Shown here in pieces: positions 1 to 14,041 of a stretch of DNA of 64,000 bases. Source of the DNA: Escherichia coli (GTDB lineage: Bacteria > Pseudomonadota > Gammaproteobacteria > Enterobacterales > Enterobacteriaceae); the NCBI RefSeq assembly GCF_001677475.2, contig NZ_CP015229.1. One strand, 5' to 3'. A program made the position numbers and the translations under genes. The stretch's first letter is position 1. Each line of letters starts with the position of its first letter. The notes below the pieces were generated by a model, which saw only the letters and a list, made by a program, of their open reading frames with translations, was not told the DNA's origin and did not search any database.

Positions 1-125
1 GAGGCGGTACACAACACTTTGGTATCGCCAAATTCGACCAGCACCGAGCCTTCTGCATGTTTTGTATAGTTACGAGTCAGGGTAACGGGACGCACCTGAT
101 TATTGCTACGGCCTGCTGGACGCAT
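1..125 (-). CDS. rph: RNase PH, 5' end only (runs off window start)
   Basis: Reverse complement of 1-125 reads ATG CGT CCA GCA GGC CGT... = [41 protein letters not shown], the RNase PH N-terminus; divergent from yicC as in K-12. Too short for the ORF track. Confidence 0.85.
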
Positions 126-251
126 ATTGAAATCTCCGGCTTGAAACAAATGTGGCTGCGCATTATACGGACTTCCGGCGGTTATTCCTATCCTGACAAG
201 GCATCGATGGCTATAATCCTTCCACCTCTCCTTTTATAAACAGGAACGTCT

Positions 252-1115
252 ATGATCCGCAGTATGACCGCCTACGCCCGGCGTGAAATCAAGGGTGAAT
301 GGGGGAGCGCAACCTGGGAAATGCGCTCGGTAAACCAGCGTTATCTGGAAACTTACTTTCGTCTGCCGGAGCAGTTCCGTAGCCTTGAACCTGTCGTTCG
401 TGAGCGTATTCGTTCTCGCCTGACGCGCGGTAAAGTGGAATGTACCCTGCGCTATGAGCCAGATGTTAGCGCACAAGGTGAGCTGATCCTCAACGAAAAA
501 CTGGCTAAACAGCTGGTAACTGCCGCGAACTGGGTGAAAATGCAGAGTGACGAAGGGGAAATCAACCCGGTTGATATTCTGCGCTGGCCAGGCGTGATGG
601 CAGCCCAGGAGCAGGATCTCGACGCGATTGCCGCTGAAATTCTCGCGGCGTTGGATGGTACGCTGGACGACTTTATCGTCGCGCGCGAAACCGAAGGTCA
701 GGCGCTGAAAGCATTGATCGAGCAGCGTCTGGAAGGCGTCACCGCCGAAGTGGTCAAAGTCCGCGCCCATATGCCGGAAATCCTGCAATGGCAGCGTGAG
801 CGTCTGGTCGCGAAGCTGGAAGATGCTCAGGTGCAACTGGAAAACAACCGTCTGGAGCAGGAGTTGGTTCTGCTGGCACAACGAATTGACGTTGCCGAAG
901 AACTGGACCGCCTCGAAGCGCATGTCAAAGAGACCTACAACATTCTGAAGAAAAAAGAAGCGGTTGGCCGTCGTCTGGACTTTATGATGCAGGAGTTCAA
1001 CCGCGAGTCGAACACTCTTGCTTCGAAGTCTATCAATGCCGAAGTGACAAACTCCGCCATCGAGCTGAAAGTGTTGATTGAGCAGATGCGCGAGCAGATT
1101 CAGAATATTGAGTAA
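252..1115 (+). CDS. yicC: YicC family stress-induced protein (287 aa)
   Basis: Track ORF 252..1115; translation and length match remembered YicC; position next to rph and dinD. Confidence 0.9.
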   Translation: MIRSMTAYARREIKGEWGSATWEMRSVNQRYLETYFRLPEQFRSLEPVVRERIRSRLTRGKVECTLRYEPDVSAQGELILNEKLAKQLVTAANWVKMQSDEGEINPVDILRWPGVMAAQEQDLDAIAAEILAALDGTLDDFIVARETEGQALKALIEQRLEGVTAEVVKVRAHMPEILQWQRERLVAKLEDAQVQLENNRLEQELVLLAQRIDVAEELDRLEAHVKETYNILKKKEAVGRRLDFMMQEFNRESNTLASKSINAEVTNSAIELKVLIEQMREQIQNIE

Positions 1116-1149
1116 CTCGTAACACTAATTCTTACTTTTCAGCCTTCAC

Positions 1150-1184
1150 AAATGCCGCCCACTCAAACAGAGCGGCATTTTTCT
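1150..1184 (+). terminator. Rho-independent terminator after yicC
   Basis: Inverted repeat AAATGCCGC...GCGGCATTT followed by TTTTCTT, directly after the yicC stop. Confidence 0.6.
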
Positions 1185-1275
1185 TCCCCGCAACTTCAAT
1201 TCTGTTTTGCGTGCCTGCTCCAGATTTTGCGATGTTTTTTTGCCCAGCACACTGAGAACGTGAGATACTCACAGC

Positions 1276-1291
1276 TGTATATAAATACAGT
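1276..1291 (+). promoter_or_regulatory. LexA (SOS) box upstream of dinD
   Basis: CTGTATATAAATACAG fits the CTGT-N8-ACAG LexA consensus, about 45 bp upstream of the dinD start; dinD is a known damage-inducible gene. Confidence 0.8.
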
Positions 1292-1335
1292 TACAGATTT
1301 ACTTTCTTTGCAATCGATATCACATGGAGTGGGCA

Positions 1336-2160
1336 ATGAACGAACATCATCAACCTTTTGAAGAAATACGGCATTATGGCACTGAAGGGCAAGAATTTTG
1401 GTCAGCGAGAGAATTGGCACCGTTACTGGATTATCGGGACTGGCGCAATTTTCAAAAGGTACTTACCCGCGCGACTCAAGCGTGCGAAGCCAGCAATCAA
1501 GCTGCATCTGACCATTTCGTTGAAACCACCAAAATGGTTGTATTAGGTTCAGGGGCTCAACGAGAACTTGAAGATGTTCATCTCTCCCGCTATGCCTGTT
1601 ACCTGGTAGTACAAAACGGCGACCCTGCGAAACCGGTTATTGCGGCAGGGCAAACTTATTTTGCTATCCAGACCCGACGGCAGGAGCTGGCTGACGATGA
1701 AGCTTTCAAGCAACTTCGTGAAGACGAAAAGCGTCTTTTTCTGAGAAATGAGTTGAAAGAACATAACAAACAATTAGTTGAGGCAGCGCAGCAAGCTGGG
1801 GTAGCGACAGCTATCGATTTCGCCATATTTCAGAATCATGGTTACCGGGGACTGTATGGTGGATTAGATCAGAAAGCCATCCATCAGCGGAAGGGGCTGA
1901 AAAAGAGTCAGAAGATCCTGGATCATATGGGTTCAACAGAACTGGCGGCTAATCTCTTTCGAGCTACCCAAACAGAAGAAAAACTCAAGCGGGATGGCGT
2001 GAATTCAAAACAGCAAGCTAACACCACACACTTTGACGTGGGTCGCAAGGTGAGGCAAACCATTCAGGAACTTGGCGGAACCATGCCTGAGGAGTTGCCG
2101 ACCCCGCAGGTCAGCATCAAGCAGTTGGAAAACAGTGTAAAAATTACAGAGAAAAAATAG
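1336..2160 (+). CDS. dinD: DNA-damage-inducible protein D
   Basis: Track ORF 1324..2160; start moved to the internal ATG (MNEHHQPFEE...) to give the remembered 274 aa; LexA box upstream. Confidence 0.85.
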   Translation: MNEHHQPFEEIRHYGTEGQEFWSARELAPLLDYRDWRNFQKVLTRATQACEASNQAASDHFVETTKMVVLGSGAQRELEDVHLSRYACYLVVQNGDPAKPVIAAGQTYFAIQTRRQELADDEAFKQLREDEKRLFLRNELKEHNKQLVEAAQQAGVATAIDFAIFQNHGYRGLYGGLDQKAIHQRKGLKKSQKILDHMGSTELAANLFRATQTEEKLKRDGVNSKQQANTTHFDVGRKVRQTIQELGGTMPEELPTPQVSIKQLENSVKITEKK

Positions 2161-2451
2161 CAGAAACTAAAAACTCTTTTTGTTGATTGAGACACCCGAT
2201 GCGTAAGCCAAAGTCCAGGTGCGGTGAACACAATGGCTAAACATTGCACCTTTCTTTTCCACCCCTCAATTTTAACCTATTTTTTCTTATGCATTTTCTC
2301 AGACAAGTAGTCAGAAGAATGCATCTACGCTACAGAAAATAGCGATTTCACATAACTACAAGTTATCAATTTCCTCTCACCTTAAAAAATCTCAATCGTG
2401 ACAATGCGCACAAATCGCTACCCTGCCAGACAGATTTTTAGGGAGAGAACC

Positions 2452-4840
<2,389 letters not shown>

Positions 4841-4864
4841 GAATCGTCTTTATTGCAGTGAATC

Positions 4865-5629
<765 letters not shown>

Positions 5630-5683
5630 ACCTGATTTCAGTATCATGCCCAGTCATTTCTTCACCTGTGGAGCTTTTTAAGT

Positions 5684-5959
5684 ATGGCACGCGTAACTGT
5701 TCAGGACGCTGTAGAGAAAATTGGTAACCGTTTTGACCTGGTACTGGTCGCCGCGCGTCGCGCTCGTCAGATGCAGGTAGGCGGAAAGGATCCGCTGGTA
5801 CCGGAAGAAAACGATAAAACCACTGTAATCGCGCTGCGCGAAATCGAAGAAGGTCTGATCAACAACCAGATCCTCGACGTTCGCGAACGCCAGGAACAGC
5901 AAGAGCAGGAAGCCGCTGAATTACAAGCCGTTACCGCTATTGCTGAAGGTCGTCGTTAA
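5684..5959 (+). CDS. rpoZ: RNA polymerase omega subunit
   Basis: 91 aa [29 protein letters not shown]...; immediately upstream of spoT. Confidence 0.95.
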
Positions 5960-5977
5960 TCACAAAGCGGGTCGCCC

Positions 5978-8086
5978 TTGTATCTGTTTGAAAGCCTGAA
6001 TCAACTGATTCAAACCTACCTGCCGGAAGACCAAATCAAGCGTCTGCGGCAGGCGTATCTCGTTGCACGTGATGCTCACGAGGGGCAAACACGTTCAAGC
6101 GGTGAACCCTATATCACGCACCCGGTGGCGGTTGCCTGCATTCTGGCCGAGATGAAACTCGACTATGAAACGCTAATGGCGGCACTGCTGCATGACGTGA
6201 TTGAAGATACTCCCGCCACCTACCAGGACATGGAACAGCTTTTTGGTAAAAGCGTCGCCGAGCTGGTAGAGGGGGTGTCGAAACTTGATAAGCTCAAGTT
6301 CCGCGATAAGAAAGAGGCGCAGGCCGAAAACTTTCGCAAGATGATTATGGCGATGGTGCAGGATATCCGCGTCATCCTCATCAAACTTGCCGACCGTACC
6401 CACAACATGCGCACGCTGGGCTCACTTCGCCCGGACAAACGCCGCCGCATCGCCCGTGAAACTCTCGAAATTTACAGCCCGCTGGCGCACCGTTTAGGTA
6501 TCCACCACATTAAAACCGAACTCGAAGAGCTGGGTTTTGAAGCGCTGTATCCCAACCGTTATCGCGTAATCAAAGAAGTGGTGAAAGCCGCGCGCGGCAA
6601 CCGTAAAGAGATGATCCAGAAGATTCTTTCTGAAATCGAAGGGCGTTTGCAGGAAGCGGGAATACCGTGCCGCGTCAGTGGTCGCGAAAAGCATCTTTAT
6701 TCGATTTACTGCAAAATGGTGCTCAAAGAGCAGCGTTTTCACTCAATCATGGACATCTACGCTTTCCGCGTGATCGTCAATGATTCTGACACCTGTTATC
6801 GCGTGCTGGGCCAGATGCACAGCCTGTACAAGCCGCGTCCGGGCCGCGTGAAAGACTATATCGCCATTCCAAAAGCGAACGGCTATCAGTCTTTGCACAC
6901 CTCGATGATTGGCCCGCACGGCGTGCCGGTTGAGGTCCAGATCCGTACCGAAGATATGGATCAGATGGCGGAGATGGGTGTTGCCGCGCACTGGGCTTAT
7001 AAAGAGCACGGCGAAACCAGTACTACCGCACAAATCCGCGCCCAGCGCTGGATGCAAAGCCTGCTGGAGCTGCAACAGAGTGCCGGTAGCTCGTTTGAAT
7101 TTATCGAGAGCGTTAAATCCGATCTCTTCCCGGATGAGATTTACGTTTTCACACCGGAAGGGCGAATTGTCGAACTGCCTGCCGGTGCAACGCCCGTCGA
7201 CTTCGCTTATGCGGTGCATACCGATATCGGTCATGCCTGCGTGGGCGCACGCGTCGACCGCCAGCCTTACCCGCTGTCGCAGCCGCTTACCAGCGGTCAA
7301 ACCGTTGAAATTATTACCGCACCGGGCGCTCGCCCGAATGCCGCTTGGCTGAACTTTGTCGTTAGCTCGAAAGCGCGCGCCAAAATTCGTCAATTGCTGA
7401 AAAACCTCAAGCGTGATGATTCTGTAAGCCTGGGCCGTCGTCTGCTCAACCATGCGTTGGGTGGCAGCCGCAAGCTCAATGAAATCCCGCAGGAAAATAT
7501 TCAGCGCGAGCTGGACCGCATGAAGCTGGCAACGCTTGACGATCTGCTGGCTGAAATCGGCCTTGGTAACGCAATGAGCGTGGTGGTCGCGAAAAATCTG
7601 CAACATGGGGACGCCTCCATTCCACCGGCAACCCAAAGTCACGGACATCTGCCCATTAAAGGTGCCGATGGCGTGCTGATCACCTTTGCGAAATGCTGTC
7701 GCCCTATTCCTGGCGACCCGATTATCGCCCACGTCAGCCCCGGTAAAGGTCTGGTGATCCACCATGAATCCTGCCGTAACATCCGTGGCTACCAGAAAGA
7801 GCCAGAGAAGTTTATGGCTGTGGAATGGGATAAAGAGACGGCGCAGGAGTTCATCACCGAAATCAAGGTGGAGATGTTCAATCATCAGGGCGCGCTGGCA
7901 AACCTAACAGCGGCAATTAACACCACCACCTCGAATATTCAAAGTTTGAATACGGAAGAGAAAGATGGTCGCGTCTACAGCGCCTTTATTCGTCTGACCG
8001 CCCGTGACCGTGTGCATCTGGCGAATATCATGCGCAAAATCCGCGTGATGCCAGACGTGATTAAAGTCACCCGAAACCGAAATTAA
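5978..8086 (+). CDS. spoT: Bifunctional (p)ppGpp synthetase/hydrolase SpoT
   Basis: 702 aa, TTG start (LYLFESLNQ...); HD hydrolase and RelA/SpoT synthetase domains; rpoZ-spoT-trmH-recG order. Confidence 0.95.
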   Translation: MYLFESLNQLIQTYLPEDQIKRLRQAYLVARDAHEGQTRSSGEPYITHPVAVACILAEMKLDYETLMAALLHDVIEDTPATYQDMEQLFGKSVAELVEGVSKLDKLKFRDKKEAQAENFRKMIMAMVQDIRVILIKLADRTHNMRTLGSLRPDKRRRIARETLEIYSPLAHRLGIHHIKTELEELGFEALYPNRYRVIKEVVKAARGNRKEMIQKILSEIEGRLQEAGIPCRVSGREKHLYSIYCKMVLKEQRFHSIMDIYAFRVIVNDSDTCYRVLGQMHSLYKPRPGRVKDYIAIPKANGYQSLHTSMIGPHGVPVEVQIRTEDMDQMAEMGVAAHWAYKEHGETSTTAQIRAQRWMQSLLELQQSAGSSFEFIESVKSDLFPDEIYVFTPEGRIVELPAGATPVDFAYAVHTDIGHACVGARVDRQPYPLSQPLTSGQTVEIITAPGARPNAAWLNFVVSSKARAKIRQLLKNLKRDDSVSLGRRLLNHALGGSRKLNEIPQENIQRELDRMKLATLDDLLAEIGLGNAMSVVVAKNLQHGDASIPPATQSHGHLPIKGADGVLITFAKCCRPIPGDPIIAHVSPGKGLVIHHESCRNIRGYQKEPEKFMAVEWDKETAQEFITEIKVEMFNHQGALANLTAAINTTTSNIQSLNTEEKDGRVYSAFIRLTARDRVHLANIMRKIRVMPDVIKVTRNRN

Positions 8087-8092
8087 TGTTTT

Positions 8093-8782
8093 ATGAACCC
8101 AACACGTTATGCACGTATCTGCGAAATGCTCGCCAGGCGGCAGCCTGATCTGACCGTCTGCATGGAGCAGGTCCACAAACCTCATAACGTTTCTGCGATT
8201 ATTCGTACCGCAGATGCCGTTGGCGTACATGAAGTTCATGCCGTCTGGCCTGGCAGCCGGATGCGCACCATGGCTTCGGCAGCTGCGGGTAGTAACAGCT
8301 GGGTACAGGTGAAAACGCACCGCACCATTGGCGATGCCGTCGCTCATCTGAAAGGCCAGGGCATGCAGATTCTGGCAACCCATCTTTCTGATAACGCTGT
8401 CGATTTCCGCGAAATTGATTACACTCGCCCGACCTGTATTTTGATGGGACAGGAGAAAACAGGCATCACGCAGGAAGCGTTGGCCCTGGCGGATCGGGAC
8501 ATCATCATTCCGATGATTGGCATGGTGCAATCGCTGAATGTTTCCGTTGCCTCAGCCCTCATTCTTTACGAAGCCCAGCGCCAGCGGCAAAATGCGGGCA
8601 TGTACCTGCGTGAAAACAGCATGTTGCCGGAAGCAGAGCAACAACGCCTGTTGTTTGAAGGCGGCTATCCGGTGCTGGCGAAAGTCGCAAAACGCAAAGG
8701 CCTGCCTTATCCCCACGTAAATCAGCAAGGCGAGATCGAAGCTGATGCCGACTGGTGGGCTACTATGCAGGCTGCAGGGTAA
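8093..8782 (+). CDS. trmH: tRNA (Gm18) 2'-O-methyltransferase
   Basis: 229 aa SpoU-family methyltransferase; conserved position between spoT and recG. Confidence 0.9.
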   Translation: MNPTRYARICEMLARRQPDLTVCMEQVHKPHNVSAIIRTADAVGVHEVHAVWPGSRMRTMASAAAGSNSWVQVKTHRTIGDAVAHLKGQGMQILATHLSDNAVDFREIDYTRPTCILMGQEKTGITQEALALADRDIIIPMIGMVQSLNVSVASALILYEAQRQRQNAGMYLRENSMLPEAEQQRLLFEGGYPVLAKVAKRKGLPYPHVNQQGEIEADADWWATMQAAG

Positions 8783-8787
8783 GTGCC

Positions 8788-10869
8788 ATGAAAGGTCGCC
8801 TGTTAGATGCTGTCCCACTCAGTTCCCTAACGGGCGTTGGCGCAGCACTTAGTAACAAACTGGCGAAAATCAACCTGCATACCGTGCAGGATCTACTGTT
8901 ACACCTTCCCCTGCGCTACGAAGATCGCACCCATCTCTACCCCATCGGAGAACTACTGCCGGGCGTTTATGCCACGGTGGAAGGCGAAGTGCTGAACTGC
9001 AATATCTCCTTCGGCGGTCGGCGGATGATGACCTGCCAGATCAGCGACGGTTCCGGCATTCTCACCATGCGCTTTTTCAACTTCAACGCGGCAATGAAAA
9101 ATAGCCTGGCGACGGGCCGCCGTGTACTGGCCTATGGTGAAGCAAAGCGCGGTAAATATGGTGCGGAGATGATCCACCCGGAATACCGCGTGCAAGGCGA
9201 TCTCAGCACGCCAGAGTTACAGGAAACGCTCACGCCGGTTTACCCAACTACGGAAGGCGTAAAGCAGGCCACGCTGCGTAAATTAACCGACCAGGCGCTG
9301 GATCTGCTCGACACCTGCGCCATTGAAGAACTCCTGCCGCCGGAACTGTCACAAGGAATGATGACGCTGCCGGAAGCGTTGCGCACTTTGCACCGCCCGC
9401 CGCCGACGCTACAGCTTAGCGATCTGGAAACCGGCCAGCATCCGGCACAACGCCGTCTGATTCTGGAAGAACTGCTGGCGCACAACCTCAGCATGTTAGC
9501 CTTACGTGCCGGAGCACAGCGTTTTCATGCCCAGCCACTGAGCGCCAATGACGCGCTGAAAAATAAACTCCTCGCAGCCTTACCGTTCAAGCCAACGGGC
9601 GCACAGGCACGCGTAGTGGCGGAGATCGAGCGCGATATGGCGCTGGATGTGCCGATGATGCGCCTGGTACAGGGCGATGTAGGTTCCGGTAAAACGCTGG
9701 TCGCCGCCCTCGCCGCGCTGCGTGCGATTGCCCACGGCAAACAGGTGGCATTAATGGCACCAACCGAATTACTCGCCGAGCAGCACGCCAATAACTTCCG
9801 CAACTGGTTTGAACCGCTCGGTATCGAAGTGGGCTGGCTCGCCGGTAAGCAGAAAGGTAAAGCGCGACTGTCTCAGCAGGAAGCCATTGCCAGCGGTCAG
9901 GTGCAGATGATTGTTGGTACGCACGCCATCTTCCAGGAACAGGTGCAGTTTAACGGCCTGGCGCTGGTGATTATCGACGAACAGCATCGCTTTGGCGTGC
10001 ATCAGCGTCTGGCATTGTGGGAGAAAGGCCAGCAGCAAGGCTTCCATCCGCATCAGCTGATCATGACCGCGACACCCATCCCACGCACGTTGGCAATGAC
10101 CGCCTATGCCGACCTTGATACCTCGGTGATAGATGAACTGCCGCCAGGCCGCACGCCAGTGACTACGGTCGCTATTCCTGATACCCGCCGTACCGACATT
10201 ATTGACCGCGTGCGCCATGCCTGCATCACCGAAAAGCGTCAGGCGTACTGGGTGTGCACACTCATTGAAGAGTCAGAGTTACTGGAAGCGCAGGCAGCTG
10301 AAGCTACCTGGGAAGAGTTGAAACTGGCGCTACCAGAGTTGAATGTTGGCCTGGTACACGGACGGATGAAACCAGCCGAGAAACAGGCGGTGATGGCGTC
10401 GTTTAAACAAGGTGAACTACACCTGCTGGTTGCCACTACCGTTATTGAAGTCGGCGTTGATGTGCCTAACGCCAGTCTGATGATTATCGAAAACCCGGAG
10501 CGTCTGGGTCTGGCGCAGTTACACCAGCTGCGCGGGCGTGTAGGTCGTGGCGCGGTGGCTTCTCACTGCGTGCTGCTCTACAAAACACCGCTCTCTAAAA
10601 CGGCGCAAATTCGCCTGCAAGTGCTGCGCGACAGCAACGACGGGTTTGTGATTGCACAAAAAGATCTGGAGATTCGCGGCCCTGGCGAATTGTTAGGCAC
10701 TCGTCAGACGGGTAATGCTGAATTTAAAGTGGCGGATTTACTGCGCGATCAGGCGATGATCCCGGAAGTTCAGCGCCTGGCGCGACATATTCACGAACGT
10801 TACCCACAACAAGCAAAAGCCCTGATAGAACGCTGGATGCCAGAAACAGAACGTTACTCCAACGCGTAA
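8788..10869 (+). CDS. recG: ATP-dependent DNA helicase RecG
   Basis: Track ORF 8755..10869; start set at MKGRLLDAVPL (693 aa); Walker A GDVGSGKT and DEQH box present. Confidence 0.95.
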   Translation: MKGRLLDAVPLSSLTGVGAALSNKLAKINLHTVQDLLLHLPLRYEDRTHLYPIGELLPGVYATVEGEVLNCNISFGGRRMMTCQISDGSGILTMRFFNFNAAMKNSLATGRRVLAYGEAKRGKYGAEMIHPEYRVQGDLSTPELQETLTPVYPTTEGVKQATLRKLTDQALDLLDTCAIEELLPPELSQGMMTLPEALRTLHRPPPTLQLSDLETGQHPAQRRLILEELLAHNLSMLALRAGAQRFHAQPLSANDALKNKLLAALPFKPTGAQARVVAEIERDMALDVPMMRLVQGDVGSGKTLVAALAALRAIAHGKQVALMAPTELLAEQHANNFRNWFEPLGIEVGWLAGKQKGKARLSQQEAIASGQVQMIVGTHAIFQEQVQFNGLALVIIDEQHRFGVHQRLALWEKGQQQGFHPHQLIMTATPIPRTLAMTAYADLDTSVIDELPPGRTPVTTVAIPDTRRTDIIDRVRHACITEKRQAYWVCTLIEESELLEAQAAEATWEELKLALPELNVGLVHGRMKPAEKQAVMASFKQGELHLLVATTVIEVGVDVPNASLMIIENPERLGLAQLHQLRGRVGRGAVASHCVLLYKTPLSKTAQIRLQVLRDSNDGFVIAQKDLEIRGPGELLGTRQTGNAEFKVADLLRDQAMIPEVQRLARHIHERYPQQAKALIERWMPETERYSNA

Positions 10870-10972
10870 AAGACGGCGGTGAGAAGACCGCCGCTTCAGG
10901 TTGTTCTACCTTCCTGCCGGATGTGCTTCGTCCTACAAAAACTTATAAATTCAATAAATTGTGAATCAATAC

Positions 10973-11001
10973 GTAGGCTTGATAAGCGAAGCGTATCAGG
11001 C
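10973..11001. repeat. REP (repetitive extragenic palindromic) element
   Basis: GTAGGCTTGATAAGCGAAGCGTATCAGGC matches the E. coli REP consensus family; lies between the convergent recG and gltS; a GC hairpin follows at about 11012-11035. Confidence 0.6.
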
Positions 11002-11044
11002 ATTTGTCTTTGTTGCGGCGGCACTTCTACCGCCGCTTCATCGG

Positions 11045-12250
11045 TTAACCCGCAAAAATCGGCAACATCAAATACAACTTAATTACCAGCGCGTTAACGA
11101 TATCGATAAAGAACGCACCGACCATCGGCACTACCAGGAAGGCCATGTGCGACGGGCCAAAACGTTCAGTGATCGCCTGCATGTTGGCGATTGCCGTTGG
11201 CGTTGCACCGAGGCCAAAACCACAGTGACCCGCAGCAAGCACTGCCGCATCGTAGTTTTTGCCCATCATGCGCCAGGTAACGAAGATGGCATACAACGCC
11301 ATGAAGATGGTCTGTACCACCAGAATCGCCAGCATCGGCAGCGCCAGCGAAGCCAGCTCCCACAGTTTCAGCCCCATCAGCGCCATCGCCAGGAACAACG
11401 ACAGGCTTACGTTACCCAGCACGGATACCGCACGCTCAAAGACGCGGTAAAAGCCCATCATTGACAGACCGTTGCTCAGAATCACGCCAACAAACAGTAC
11501 ACAGACGAAGGTCGGCAGTTCAAAAGCAGTGCCAGCCAAAAGTTGCGCAACAATTTTCCCCACCGTCAGGCAGATAGCAATCAGCGCGATAGTTTCAATC
11601 AGCACCAACGAGGTGATCATGCGGCCCACATCCGGCTTTTCGAACGCCGTCGGGACTTCCTGGTCATCCGGAATACCGTTCGGCGTGGTGGAGTGTTTCA
11701 CCAGATAGCGCGCCACCGGACCGCCAATCAAGCCGCCCAGCACCAAACCGAACGTTGCACAGGCCATCGCCACTTCCGTCGCATTGGTGAAGCCATAACG
11801 TTCAATGAACAATTTACTCCATGCAGCTCCCGTACCGTGACCGCCGGAAAGCGTAATAGAACCGGCCAGCAACCCCATCAGCGGATCAAGCCCTAACAGG
11901 CTAGCCATACCAATGCCAATGGCATTTTGCATCACCAACAGACCAACAACCACAATCAGGAAGATGCCAACCACACGCCCACCGGCACGCAAACTGGCAA
12001 TGTTGGCGTTCAGGCCAATGGTGGCGAAGAAAGCCAGCATTAACGGATCGCGTAGGGACATATCAAAGTTGACTTCCCAGCCCATGCTTTTTTTCAGTAC
12101 CAGTAGCGCCAGCGCCACCAACAAACCACCCGCAACAGGTTCCGGTATGGTGTATTTCTTCAAAAAGGAGACGGAATGGACCAACTTACGCCCGAGCAGC
12201 AACGTCAGCGTTGCGGCAACAAGCGTTGCTAAAGTATCGAGATGAAACAT
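11045..12250 (-). CDS. gltS: Sodium/glutamate symporter
   Basis: 401 aa polytopic membrane protein matching remembered GltS; conserved position. Confidence 0.9.
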   Translation of the reverse strand: MFHLDTLATLVAATLTLLLGRKLVHSVSFLKKYTIPEPVAGGLLVALALLVLKKSMGWEVNFDMSLRDPLMLAFFATIGLNANIASLRAGGRVVGIFLIVVVGLLVMQNAIGIGMASLLGLDPLMGLLAGSITLSGGHGTGAAWSKLFIERYGFTNATEVAMACATFGLVLGGLIGGPVARYLVKHSTTPNGIPDDQEVPTAFEKPDVGRMITSLVLIETIALIAICLTVGKIVAQLLAGTAFELPTFVCVLFVGVILSNGLSMMGFYRVFERAVSVLGNVSLSLFLAMALMGLKLWELASLALPMLAILVVQTIFMALYAIFVTWRMMGKNYDAAVLAAGHCGFGLGATPTAIANMQAITERFGPSHMAFLVVPMVGAFFIDIVNALVIKLYLMLPIFAG

Positions 12251-12529
12251 AGTTACTCCTTTGTATCCGCATCACTCTTTCATACTCGTCATACTTCATC
12301 GCGCAGTGGCAACTTCATGAACTATGACGGGTATCGAGTTATGCTTTCCTGGGTCAAATTCTCAGCTGTTAATGAACAAATGGCATGGATTTTAAGCAGA
12401 AAAATACCAAAAGTTATATAAAAAAGTGCATTTATCTCATTTAAATATTTAGATGAGGATGTGGCAAACGTTTGCTTTTCTCTTTCGGTCAGCTAAAATG
12501 CCCGCTTTGCTACCACGGGATTGTTTTCG

Positions 12530-13921
12530 ATGTCTGTTTCCACCCTCGAGTCAGAAAATGCGCAACCGGTTGCGCAGACTCAAAACAGCGAACTGATTTA
12601 CCGTCTTGAAGATAGTCCGCCGCTTCCTCAAACCTTGTTTGCCGCCTGTCAGCATCTGCTGGCGATGTTCGTTGCGGTGATCACGCCAGCGCTATTAATC
12701 TGCCAGGCGCTGGGTTTACCGGCACAAGACACGCAACACATTATTAGTATGTCGCTGTTTGCCTCCGGTGTGGCATCGATTATTCAAATTAAGGCCTGGG
12801 GTCCGGTTGGCTCCGGGCTGTTGTCTATTCAGGGCACAAGCTTCAACTTTGTTGCCCCGTTGATTATGGGCGGCACAGCGCTGAAAACCGGAGGTGCTGA
12901 TGTTCCTACCATGATGGCGGCTTTGTTCGGCACGTTGATGCTGGCAAGTTGTACCGAGATGGTGATCTCCCGCGTTCTGCATCTGGCGCGCCGCATTATT
13001 ACACCGCTGGTTTCTGGCGTTGTGGTGATGATTATCGGCCTGTCGCTAATTCAGGTGGGGCTGACCTCCATTGGCGGCGGTTACGCAGCCATGAGCGATA
13101 ACACCTTCGGCGCACCGAAAAATCTGCTGCTGGCAGGCGTGGTCTTAGCCTTAATTATCCTGCTTAACCGTCAACGTAACCCTTACTTACGCGTGGCCTC
13201 ACTGGTGATTGCGATGGCGGCCGGATATGCGCTGGCGTGGTTTATGGGCATGTTGCCAGAAAGCAACGAACCGATGACGCAAGAACTGATTATGGTGCCA
13301 ACGCCACTCTATTACGGTCTTGGCATTGAATGGAGTCTGCTGCTGCCGCTGATGCTGGTCTTTATGATCACTTCGCTGGAAACCATTGGCGATATCACGG
13401 CGACCTCTGACGTTTCCGAACAGCCAGTGTCCGGTCCGCTGTACATGAAACGCCTGAAAGGCGGCGTGCTGGCAAACGGTCTGAACTCGTTTGTTTCGGC
13501 GGTGTTTAACACCTTCCCGAACTCCTGCTTCGGGCAGAACAACGGAGTGATCCAGTTGACCGGTGTTGCCAGCCGCTATGTCGGTTTTGTCGTCGCGCTG
13601 ATGTTGATCGTGCTGGGTCTGTTCCCGGCAGTGAGCGGTTTTGTACAACACATTCCAGAACCGGTTCTGGGCGGCGCAACGCTTGTAATGTTTGGCACTA
13701 TCGCCGCTTCCGGTGTGCGCATTGTGTCTCGTGAGCCGCTGAACCGTCGGGCGATTCTGATTATCGCGCTGTCGCTGGCGGTCGGTCTGGGCGTCTCTCA
13801 GCAGCCGCTGATTTTGCAGTTTGCCCCTGAGTGGCTGAAAAACCTGCTCTCCTCCGGGATTGCCGCGGGCGGTATTACTGCCATCGTGCTGAATCTGATT
13901 TTCCCACCAGAAAAACAGTAA
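12530..13921 (+). CDS. xanP: Xanthine permease (NCS2 family)
   Basis: Track ORF 12521..13921; start at [10 protein letters not shown] (463 aa); NCS2 nucleobase transporter features. Confidence 0.85.
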
Positions 13922-14041
13922 TTCACTGGCGGCGGTAAGATAATTACCGCCGCAGTCTCACCTCTTTCACCATTCCCGCCTTGAGGATTGCGCGTAAATC
14001 GTGCATAACTCCCTTATGTGCATTTCACGGGATGGAAGACC

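Follow-up and report, generated by a model that had tools for sequence, protein, structure and literature searches.

The yicC–dinD intergenic region

The window, that is, the whole 64 000 nt stretch of Escherichia coli DNA analysed here, contains the genes yicC, dinD, yicG and ligB in the same order as in K-12. The dinD coding sequence (1336..2160, + strand) specifies 274 aa plus a stop, in agreement with the K-12 annotation, and its product matches the NCBIfam equivalog NF008573 from end to end at 505 bits, the cut-off being 242. By this score, and by its place in a yicC–dinD–yicG locus, the gene is dinD, under which name it is annotated in E. coli genomes; the DNA of the region is 97–99 % identical to E. 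coli dinD loci. A Pfam Bro-N domain covers residues 10–105 of the protein. To our knowledge, the cellular role of DinD is still poorly defined.

Two in-frame ATG codons, at 1324 and 1336, could serve as the start of dinD. Yersinia and Pectobacterium have conserved the sequence CATGGAGTGrGCrATG, with its GGAG, ahead of their dinD genes, and this supports the downstream codon, ATG 1336, as the predicted start. A related sequence, AAGGAGTGAGCGATG, is present in Pseudocitrobacter. The putative Shine–Dalgarno sequence, GGAG (1326..1329, + strand), can be read 6 nt before ATG 1336.

Between yicC (252..1115) and dinD there is a gap of 220 nt. This includes a probable intrinsic terminator of yicC (1150..1185, + strand), in which a T run comes directly after a GC-rich hairpin. 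As RNA, the segment 1150–1190 is predicted to fold with −11.9 kcal/mol into a stem formed by AAAUGCCGC and GCGGCAUUU, after which there is a U-rich stretch. The loop of 13 nt is over the limit of the terminator scanner, which consequently missed this structure. A comparable hairpin and T run follow yicC in other Enterobacterales. The presence of a terminator-like hairpin after yicC implies that dinD would need a promoter of its own within 1186..1335.

A strict sigma-70 consensus scanner, applied to 1050..2450, detected no promoter at 9 of 12 matches, and no terminator. Under relaxed settings the best sigma-70-like candidate upstream of dinD is TTGCCC-N18-GATACT, comprising a putative −35 hexamer at 1240..1245 and a putative −10 hexamer at 1264..1269 (both + strand); its score of 7.65 bits is equalled by 23 % of the 150 nt slices of the window. 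Seven aligned Escherichia alleles all carry the same −35 hexamer. Two E. coli polymorphisms are located in the spacer, and the −10 hexamer departs from GATACT in a single E. coli allele, as GACACT, at its third and least conserved position. This pattern, in which the spacer varies, the −35 hexamer does not and the −10 hexamer hardly does, mildly supports the putative promoter. Over the full 64 kb, an Rfam scan identified tRNA-Sec only (selC, 19807..19897) and nothing at the dinD leader.

Within the same intergenic gap, a pattern search located the single CTGT-N8-ACAG of the entire window, CTGTATATAAATACAG, at 1275..1290; it is identical to the core of the K-12 dinD operator. The original prediction had placed it at 1276–1291, one base too high, and about 45 bp upstream of dinD, a distance that proves exact, with 45 nt between the end of the box at 1290 and ATG 1336. 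The description of the site as a perfect CTGT-N8-ACAG palindrome holds for the pattern itself and for the 6 bp inverted arms, CTGTAT/ATACAG, but not for the central ATAA, which has no self-complementarity. The consensus LexA operator is TACTG(TA)5CAGTA, with an invariant CTG-N10-CAG (PMC11228462; PMC6590174). The full 20 bp sequence in the window, AGCTGTATATAAATACAGTT (1273..1292), is an imperfect palindrome of this kind: it carries CTG-N10-CAG, both CTGT and ACAG are present, and the spacer is AT-rich. No strand is assigned to either the core or the 20-mer. The promoter candidate, which is not statistically distinctive, predicts a +1 near 1276, inside the box, so that the operator would span about −4 to +17. 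This is a typical place for LexA to exclude RNA polymerase.

The LexA motif match and its allelic variation

The bare CTGT-N8-ACAG pattern, in which eight bases are specified, proves nothing alone, since 0.63 occurrences are expected per 64 kb of this composition and 44 of 100 shuffled windows contained at least one. The pattern by itself is thus not beyond chance, and the match becomes significant only once the whole 20-mer is scored. For this purpose a 20-position weight matrix was built from 17 of the SOS boxes that PMC3009722 lists for E. coli in its Table 4; dinD was excluded in order to avoid circularity. With the dinD-free matrix, AGCTGTATATAAATACAGTT scores 22.57 bits, and its heterology index (HI; Berg–von Hippel type) is 4.56. 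According to the exact score distribution this corresponds to P = 1.1e-8 per position and to E = 1.4e-3 per window, both strands included, and a score of 22.57 bits was reached in none of 300 dinucleotide shuffles. The 17 known boxes span 11.1 to 27.4 bits when each is left out of the matrix in turn. The site lies within this range of functional boxes, and outscores 13 of the 17, including those of dinI, sulA, recA and lexA. The weight-matrix check suggested with the original prediction therefore returned a high and not a low score, and the designation as a canonical LexA box is borne out, the full 20-mer also aligning base for base with the K-12 dinD SOS box.

On both strands of the window, AGCTGTATATAAATACAGTT is the top match. 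The runner-up, inside ligB, reaches 12.3 bits, about 10 bits lower and less than shuffled windows yield on average as their best score (13.3 bits), and the matrix scan of both strands of the 64 kb found no second SOS box above this value. The matrix thus parts the site cleanly from the background (22.6 vs ≤12.3 bits elsewhere in the 64 kb). From the K-12 gene order, the very strong tisB/istR SOS box might have been included in the window as well. This was ruled out, as the window stops inside ilvB, with istR a few hundred bases further on. For the same reason a match at 61325–61344, TACTGTATAACTTTAAAGGC (11.8 bits), whose first 10 bases are also those of the tisB box, is considered unrelated and at chance level. 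With tisB/istR outside the window, a single strong LexA site is what known biology predicts.

Elsewhere in the window, a selC island (19900–44000) encodes EilA, IpaD/SipD-like and YopB/SseC-like type III secretion (translocon) proteins and an inverse-autotransporter adhesin. This stretch is at least 80 % covered in only 36 of 5,426 genomes, at 93–95 % identity. Two hypothetical genes near ilvN (59500–62000) are full length in only ~1,100 E. coli genomes.

The sequence at 1273..1292 is almost certainly the LexA operator (SOS box) of dinD, orthologous to the K-12 dinD operator. In the undamaged cell a LexA dimer would occupy both half-sites, CTGT and ACAG, of the dinD operator. As the operator follows the yicC terminator and precedes the dinD ribosome-binding site, lying most likely over the transcription start, bound LexA would block RNA polymerase. 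DNA damage would lead to RecA filaments and to self-cleavage of LexA, whereupon the operator would empty and dinD would be transcribed. The course from DNA damage through the RecA filament and LexA self-cleavage to derepression is established SOS knowledge. Damage induction of this particular allele under LexA control would be expected by analogy, being carried over from the K-12 literature.

At position 1274 of the window, the second position of the 20-mer, the allele has G (AGCTGT) whereas the K-12 dinD box has A (AACTGT). The exact 41-mer around the box is found in its K-12 version in 3,166 of 5,426 complete E. coli genomes, and in the version of the window in none. A second allele family, which includes UTI89, accounts for 1,036 genomes, and in several of these alleles the box reads AACTGTATATAAACACAGTT (24.2 bits), with several changes just downstream of it. 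In all seven Escherichia alleles aligned, amongst which the K-12 and UTI89 types are represented, CTGT and ACAG are unchanged. The number of variable positions in these alleles is 2 of 20 within the box vs 10 of 123 in the flanking sequence. This variation is consistent with constraint on the box but too sparse to show purifying selection; because the variable sites are so few, conservation within E. coli is uninformative on constraint. Across positions 1–20000, the window has no more than 97.6 % identity to any complete E. coli genome, and the best match to the dinD region is 99.2 %. Judging from these identities, the window represents an Escherichia lineage that has been little sampled and falls outside the well-sampled groups, and this would explain the private variant at 1274.

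The dinD gene is not universal in E. coli: the region has no match in 713 of the 5,426 genomes, and is covered to at least 80 % in only 4,048. In E. coli strain H2 (L005, 1–2700) dinD is annotated as a partial pseudogene without its N-terminus. The place immediately upstream, where yicC and the operator would otherwise be, is taken by antirepressor, YlcI/YnfO-family and Icd-like genes, which have the appearance of prophage or satellite genes. The dinD allele of E. coli 19KM1766N (L004, 537–1139) has 603 nt compared with 825, probably through an internal deletion, with promoter and operator intact. Within the dinD gene of the window, the 16 nt CAACTGCTTGATGCTG (2112–2127, − strand match) is perfectly conserved in this divergent lineage. 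Through this sequence the tisAB RNA and the 3' end of dinD mRNA are reportedly complementary (PMC2577331).

Other readings of the site at 1273..1292 have to be weighed against a LexA operator. It could have arisen by chance, or could be an AT-rich promoter element in which LexA has no role and TATATAAAT serves as the −10 region. The expected 0.63 occurrences of the bare pattern per window, the TATA-like centre of the box and the lack of a box in syntenic orthologues of other genera would all agree with this. The E value of the full 20-mer (1.4e-3) would not, nor would the location of the site, which corresponds exactly to that of an orthologous operator for which LexA-dependent regulation has been published. 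As regards a −10 region, TACAGT is the sole hexamer within the box to have the near-invariant T at −10 position 6, and the best combination that includes it reaches only 4.15 bits. Such an explanation is therefore very improbable. We find it just as difficult to credit that the inverted repeat works in the transcript, as a hairpin of the 5' UTR affecting the stability or translation of dinD mRNA, and not as a DNA operator. The 20-mer, as RNA, does fold into a 7 bp hairpin (−6.4 kcal/mol). However, its stem is AU-rich and weak, and it lies 33 nt upstream of the Shine–Dalgarno sequence, which stays unsequestered; moreover, with the predicted start at ~1276, in the left arm, the hairpin would be incompletely transcribed. 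The LexA motif, in addition, is matched position by position, including an unpaired centre that an RNA stem does not need.

More credible than these, though still unlikely, is that the operator is real and that the private A-to-G change at 1274 makes dinD noticeably leakier, or earlier induced, than in typical E. coli. The change costs 2.1 bits (24.72 to 22.57) and raises the HI by 1.6 (2.95 to 4.56). It also breaks the 8 bp symmetric arms of the K-12 box, at a position where 12 of the 17 known boxes have A, and the variant occurs in 0 of 5,426 complete E. coli genomes. Set against this, the functional lexA and ruvA operators have G at the same position, the motif-defining CTGT is intact, and the site still scores above dinI, sulA, recA and lexA in the leave-one-out comparison; the size of any effect is not computable from sequence. 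We infer that the substitution would weaken LexA binding only modestly, at most.

DinD homologues, LexA boxes and type I restriction–modification genes

A protein-guided scan, with one genome per species, found at least 567 loci encoding relatives of DinD, of which the best 80 were examined. These belong to other genera, with no other Escherichia species amongst them. The homologues at the best 80 of at least 567 loci have 66–89 % aa identity and come from many phyla, their range taking in Gamma-, Beta-, Delta- and Epsilonproteobacteria, Chlamydiae, Bacteroidetes, Spirochaetes, Planctomycetes and others. For each of these homologues, the preceding 250 nt were scored at a threshold of ≥15 bits with the E. 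coli matrix, the scan thus covering LexA motifs of the Gamma- and Betaproteobacterial type. Such a site was present within 250 nt upstream at eight of these best 80 of at least 567 loci, and at none of the 80 in the remaining ~3.5 kb, which indicates that the upstream matrix matches are specific. The eight loci are confined to two Citrobacter and six Burkholderia/Paraburkholderia/Caballeronia.

The predicted Citrobacter box, CACTGTAAAAAyATCCAGTA, is situated 26 nt before the start (L030:1446–1465 and L035:1446–1465), and the stand-alone dinD homologue and its box lie between ibpB and a yidE-like permease gene. In the Burkholderiaceae the predicted box, ACCTGTAyAAAAAnACAGTA, is ~88 nt upstream of the start (L049, L050, L052, L077, L082 and L085, about 70–110 nt before position 1501), and here the stand-alone homologue and box lie between mnmE and an integrase gene. 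These boxes resemble that of the window in having CTG-N10-CAG, in scoring 17.5–23 bits, and in being directly upstream of a stand-alone dinD-family gene. They differ from it in sequence, in distance to the start (26 and ~88 nt vs 45 nt), and in linkage, which is to ibpB in Citrobacter, to mnmE and the integrase gene in Burkholderiaceae, and to yicC in Escherichia.

No CTG-N10-CAG was present upstream of dinD at seven yicC-syntenic loci from six genera of Enterobacterales, namely Pseudocitrobacter, Yersinia massiliensis, Rahnella, Providencia, Morganella (two loci) and Pectobacterium fontis. Conservation across genera gives the operator no support; the lack of the box at these loci is compatible with a lineage-specific gain, and we take it to mean this and not to speak against function. 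In a neighbour-joining tree the three box-bearing groups form separate clades, each nested amongst box-less relatives. The simplest reading of this arrangement is that LexA control arose independently in Escherichia, Citrobacter and Burkholderiaceae; the distribution may alternatively have come about by multiple losses.

Two further upstream elements were observed amongst the homologues. The Yersinia massiliensis and Pectobacterium dinD loci (L006:1380–1460, L014:1370–1460 and the upstream region of L012), which have no LexA box, share a conserved upstream element. This is an inverted repeat, TTATTGT(A/G)-N~14-(T)ACAATAA, ~90 nt before the start, and is possibly the operator of another regulator. 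In Photorhabdus (L016, L020 and L028) there is a weak LexA-like sequence, TCTTGGATGGCATAACAGTA, ~72 nt before position 1501, which at 12.1 bits is near chance and is identical in three species.

Type I restriction–modification (R–M) genes adjoin the dinD homologue at 39 of the best 80 of at least 567 loci. The typical order is hsdM–dinD–hsdS on one strand, with 4 nt overlaps at locus L065, and Pfam confirmed the R–M neighbours at one Bacteroidetes, one Geobacter and one Acinetobacter locus. None of the 39 R–M-adjoining loci amongst these 80 has a LexA box. DinD also scores 413 bits against PDC-S13, a phage-defence candidate listed by PADLOC, and matches the N-terminal part of the 717-position 'Specificity_I' model, the latter match suggesting the existence of DinD–HsdS fusions. 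The R–M association can be seen in published annotation, for example at the gonococcal ngoAV locus (bioRxiv 10.64898/2026.01.10.698759); a literature search found no study of it.

Taken together, these observations allow a tentative proposal, to which we give slightly less than even weight, that the dinD box is not ancestral. DinD would be a highly conserved and horizontally mobile family, mostly embedded between hsdM and hsdS, whose stand-alone copies gained LexA control at least three times, with differing operators, next to yicC in Escherichia, ibpB in Citrobacter and mnmE in Burkholderiaceae. On this view, the SOS regulon of E. coli would have recruited dinD from amongst defence-island genes. 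The patchy and apparently repeated association of LexA boxes with DinD is the sole part of the present analysis that goes beyond textbook knowledge. It may be of interest for regulon evolution and phage defence, and a defence-related origin of DinD, if true, would suggest new experiments.

Comparison with known LexA operators

The site at 1273..1292 was anticipated in the original prediction to be expected biology and useful chiefly as a positive control, and that is what it is: the known dinD SOS operator with a private flank variant, and nothing new for SOS biology. As a control, it demonstrates that a textbook regulatory site is correctly readable from raw sequence. The consensus sites of CRP (TGTGA-N6-TCACA), ArgR and Fur were also considered; judged by eye, none fits.

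Regulation of dinD in K-12 is well documented. The K-12 dinD box is AACTGTATATAAATACAGTT (PMC3009722), dinD is amongst the genes with a 'known SOS box' (PMC6590174), and the heterology index of this box, 2.2, is amongst the best in the genome (PMC6590174; PMC11228462). RT-qPCR with lexA(Def) and lexA3 strains confirmed that dinD expression depends on LexA (PMC3009722), and AZT induced the gene 9.8-fold, with a value 12-fold lower in the non-cleavable lexA3 strain (PMC11228462). The main text of PMC5999292, in which 28 operators were measured, does not name dinD.

The umuDC and sbmC SOS boxes, TACTGTATATAAAAACAGTA, share their left part, CTGTATATAAA, with the box in the window. They belong to other genes and have the outer flanks TA...TA, vs AG...TT in the window. 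Their score of 27.4 bits (leave-one-out) compares with 22.6–24.7 bits for dinD, and places them in the high-affinity class of score.

The K-12 dinD (pcsA) box, upstream of b3645, occupies the orthologous position between yicC and dinD, and by alignment the yicC–dinD intergenic region of the window is ~97 % identical to that of K-12 MG1655. The two loci have equal distances between box and ATG, and their putative −35, −10 and ribosome-binding sequences are alike. The 16 bp core is identical and 19 of the 20 operator bases match, the outer flank of the window allele, AG...TT, being less symmetric than the AA...TT of K-12.
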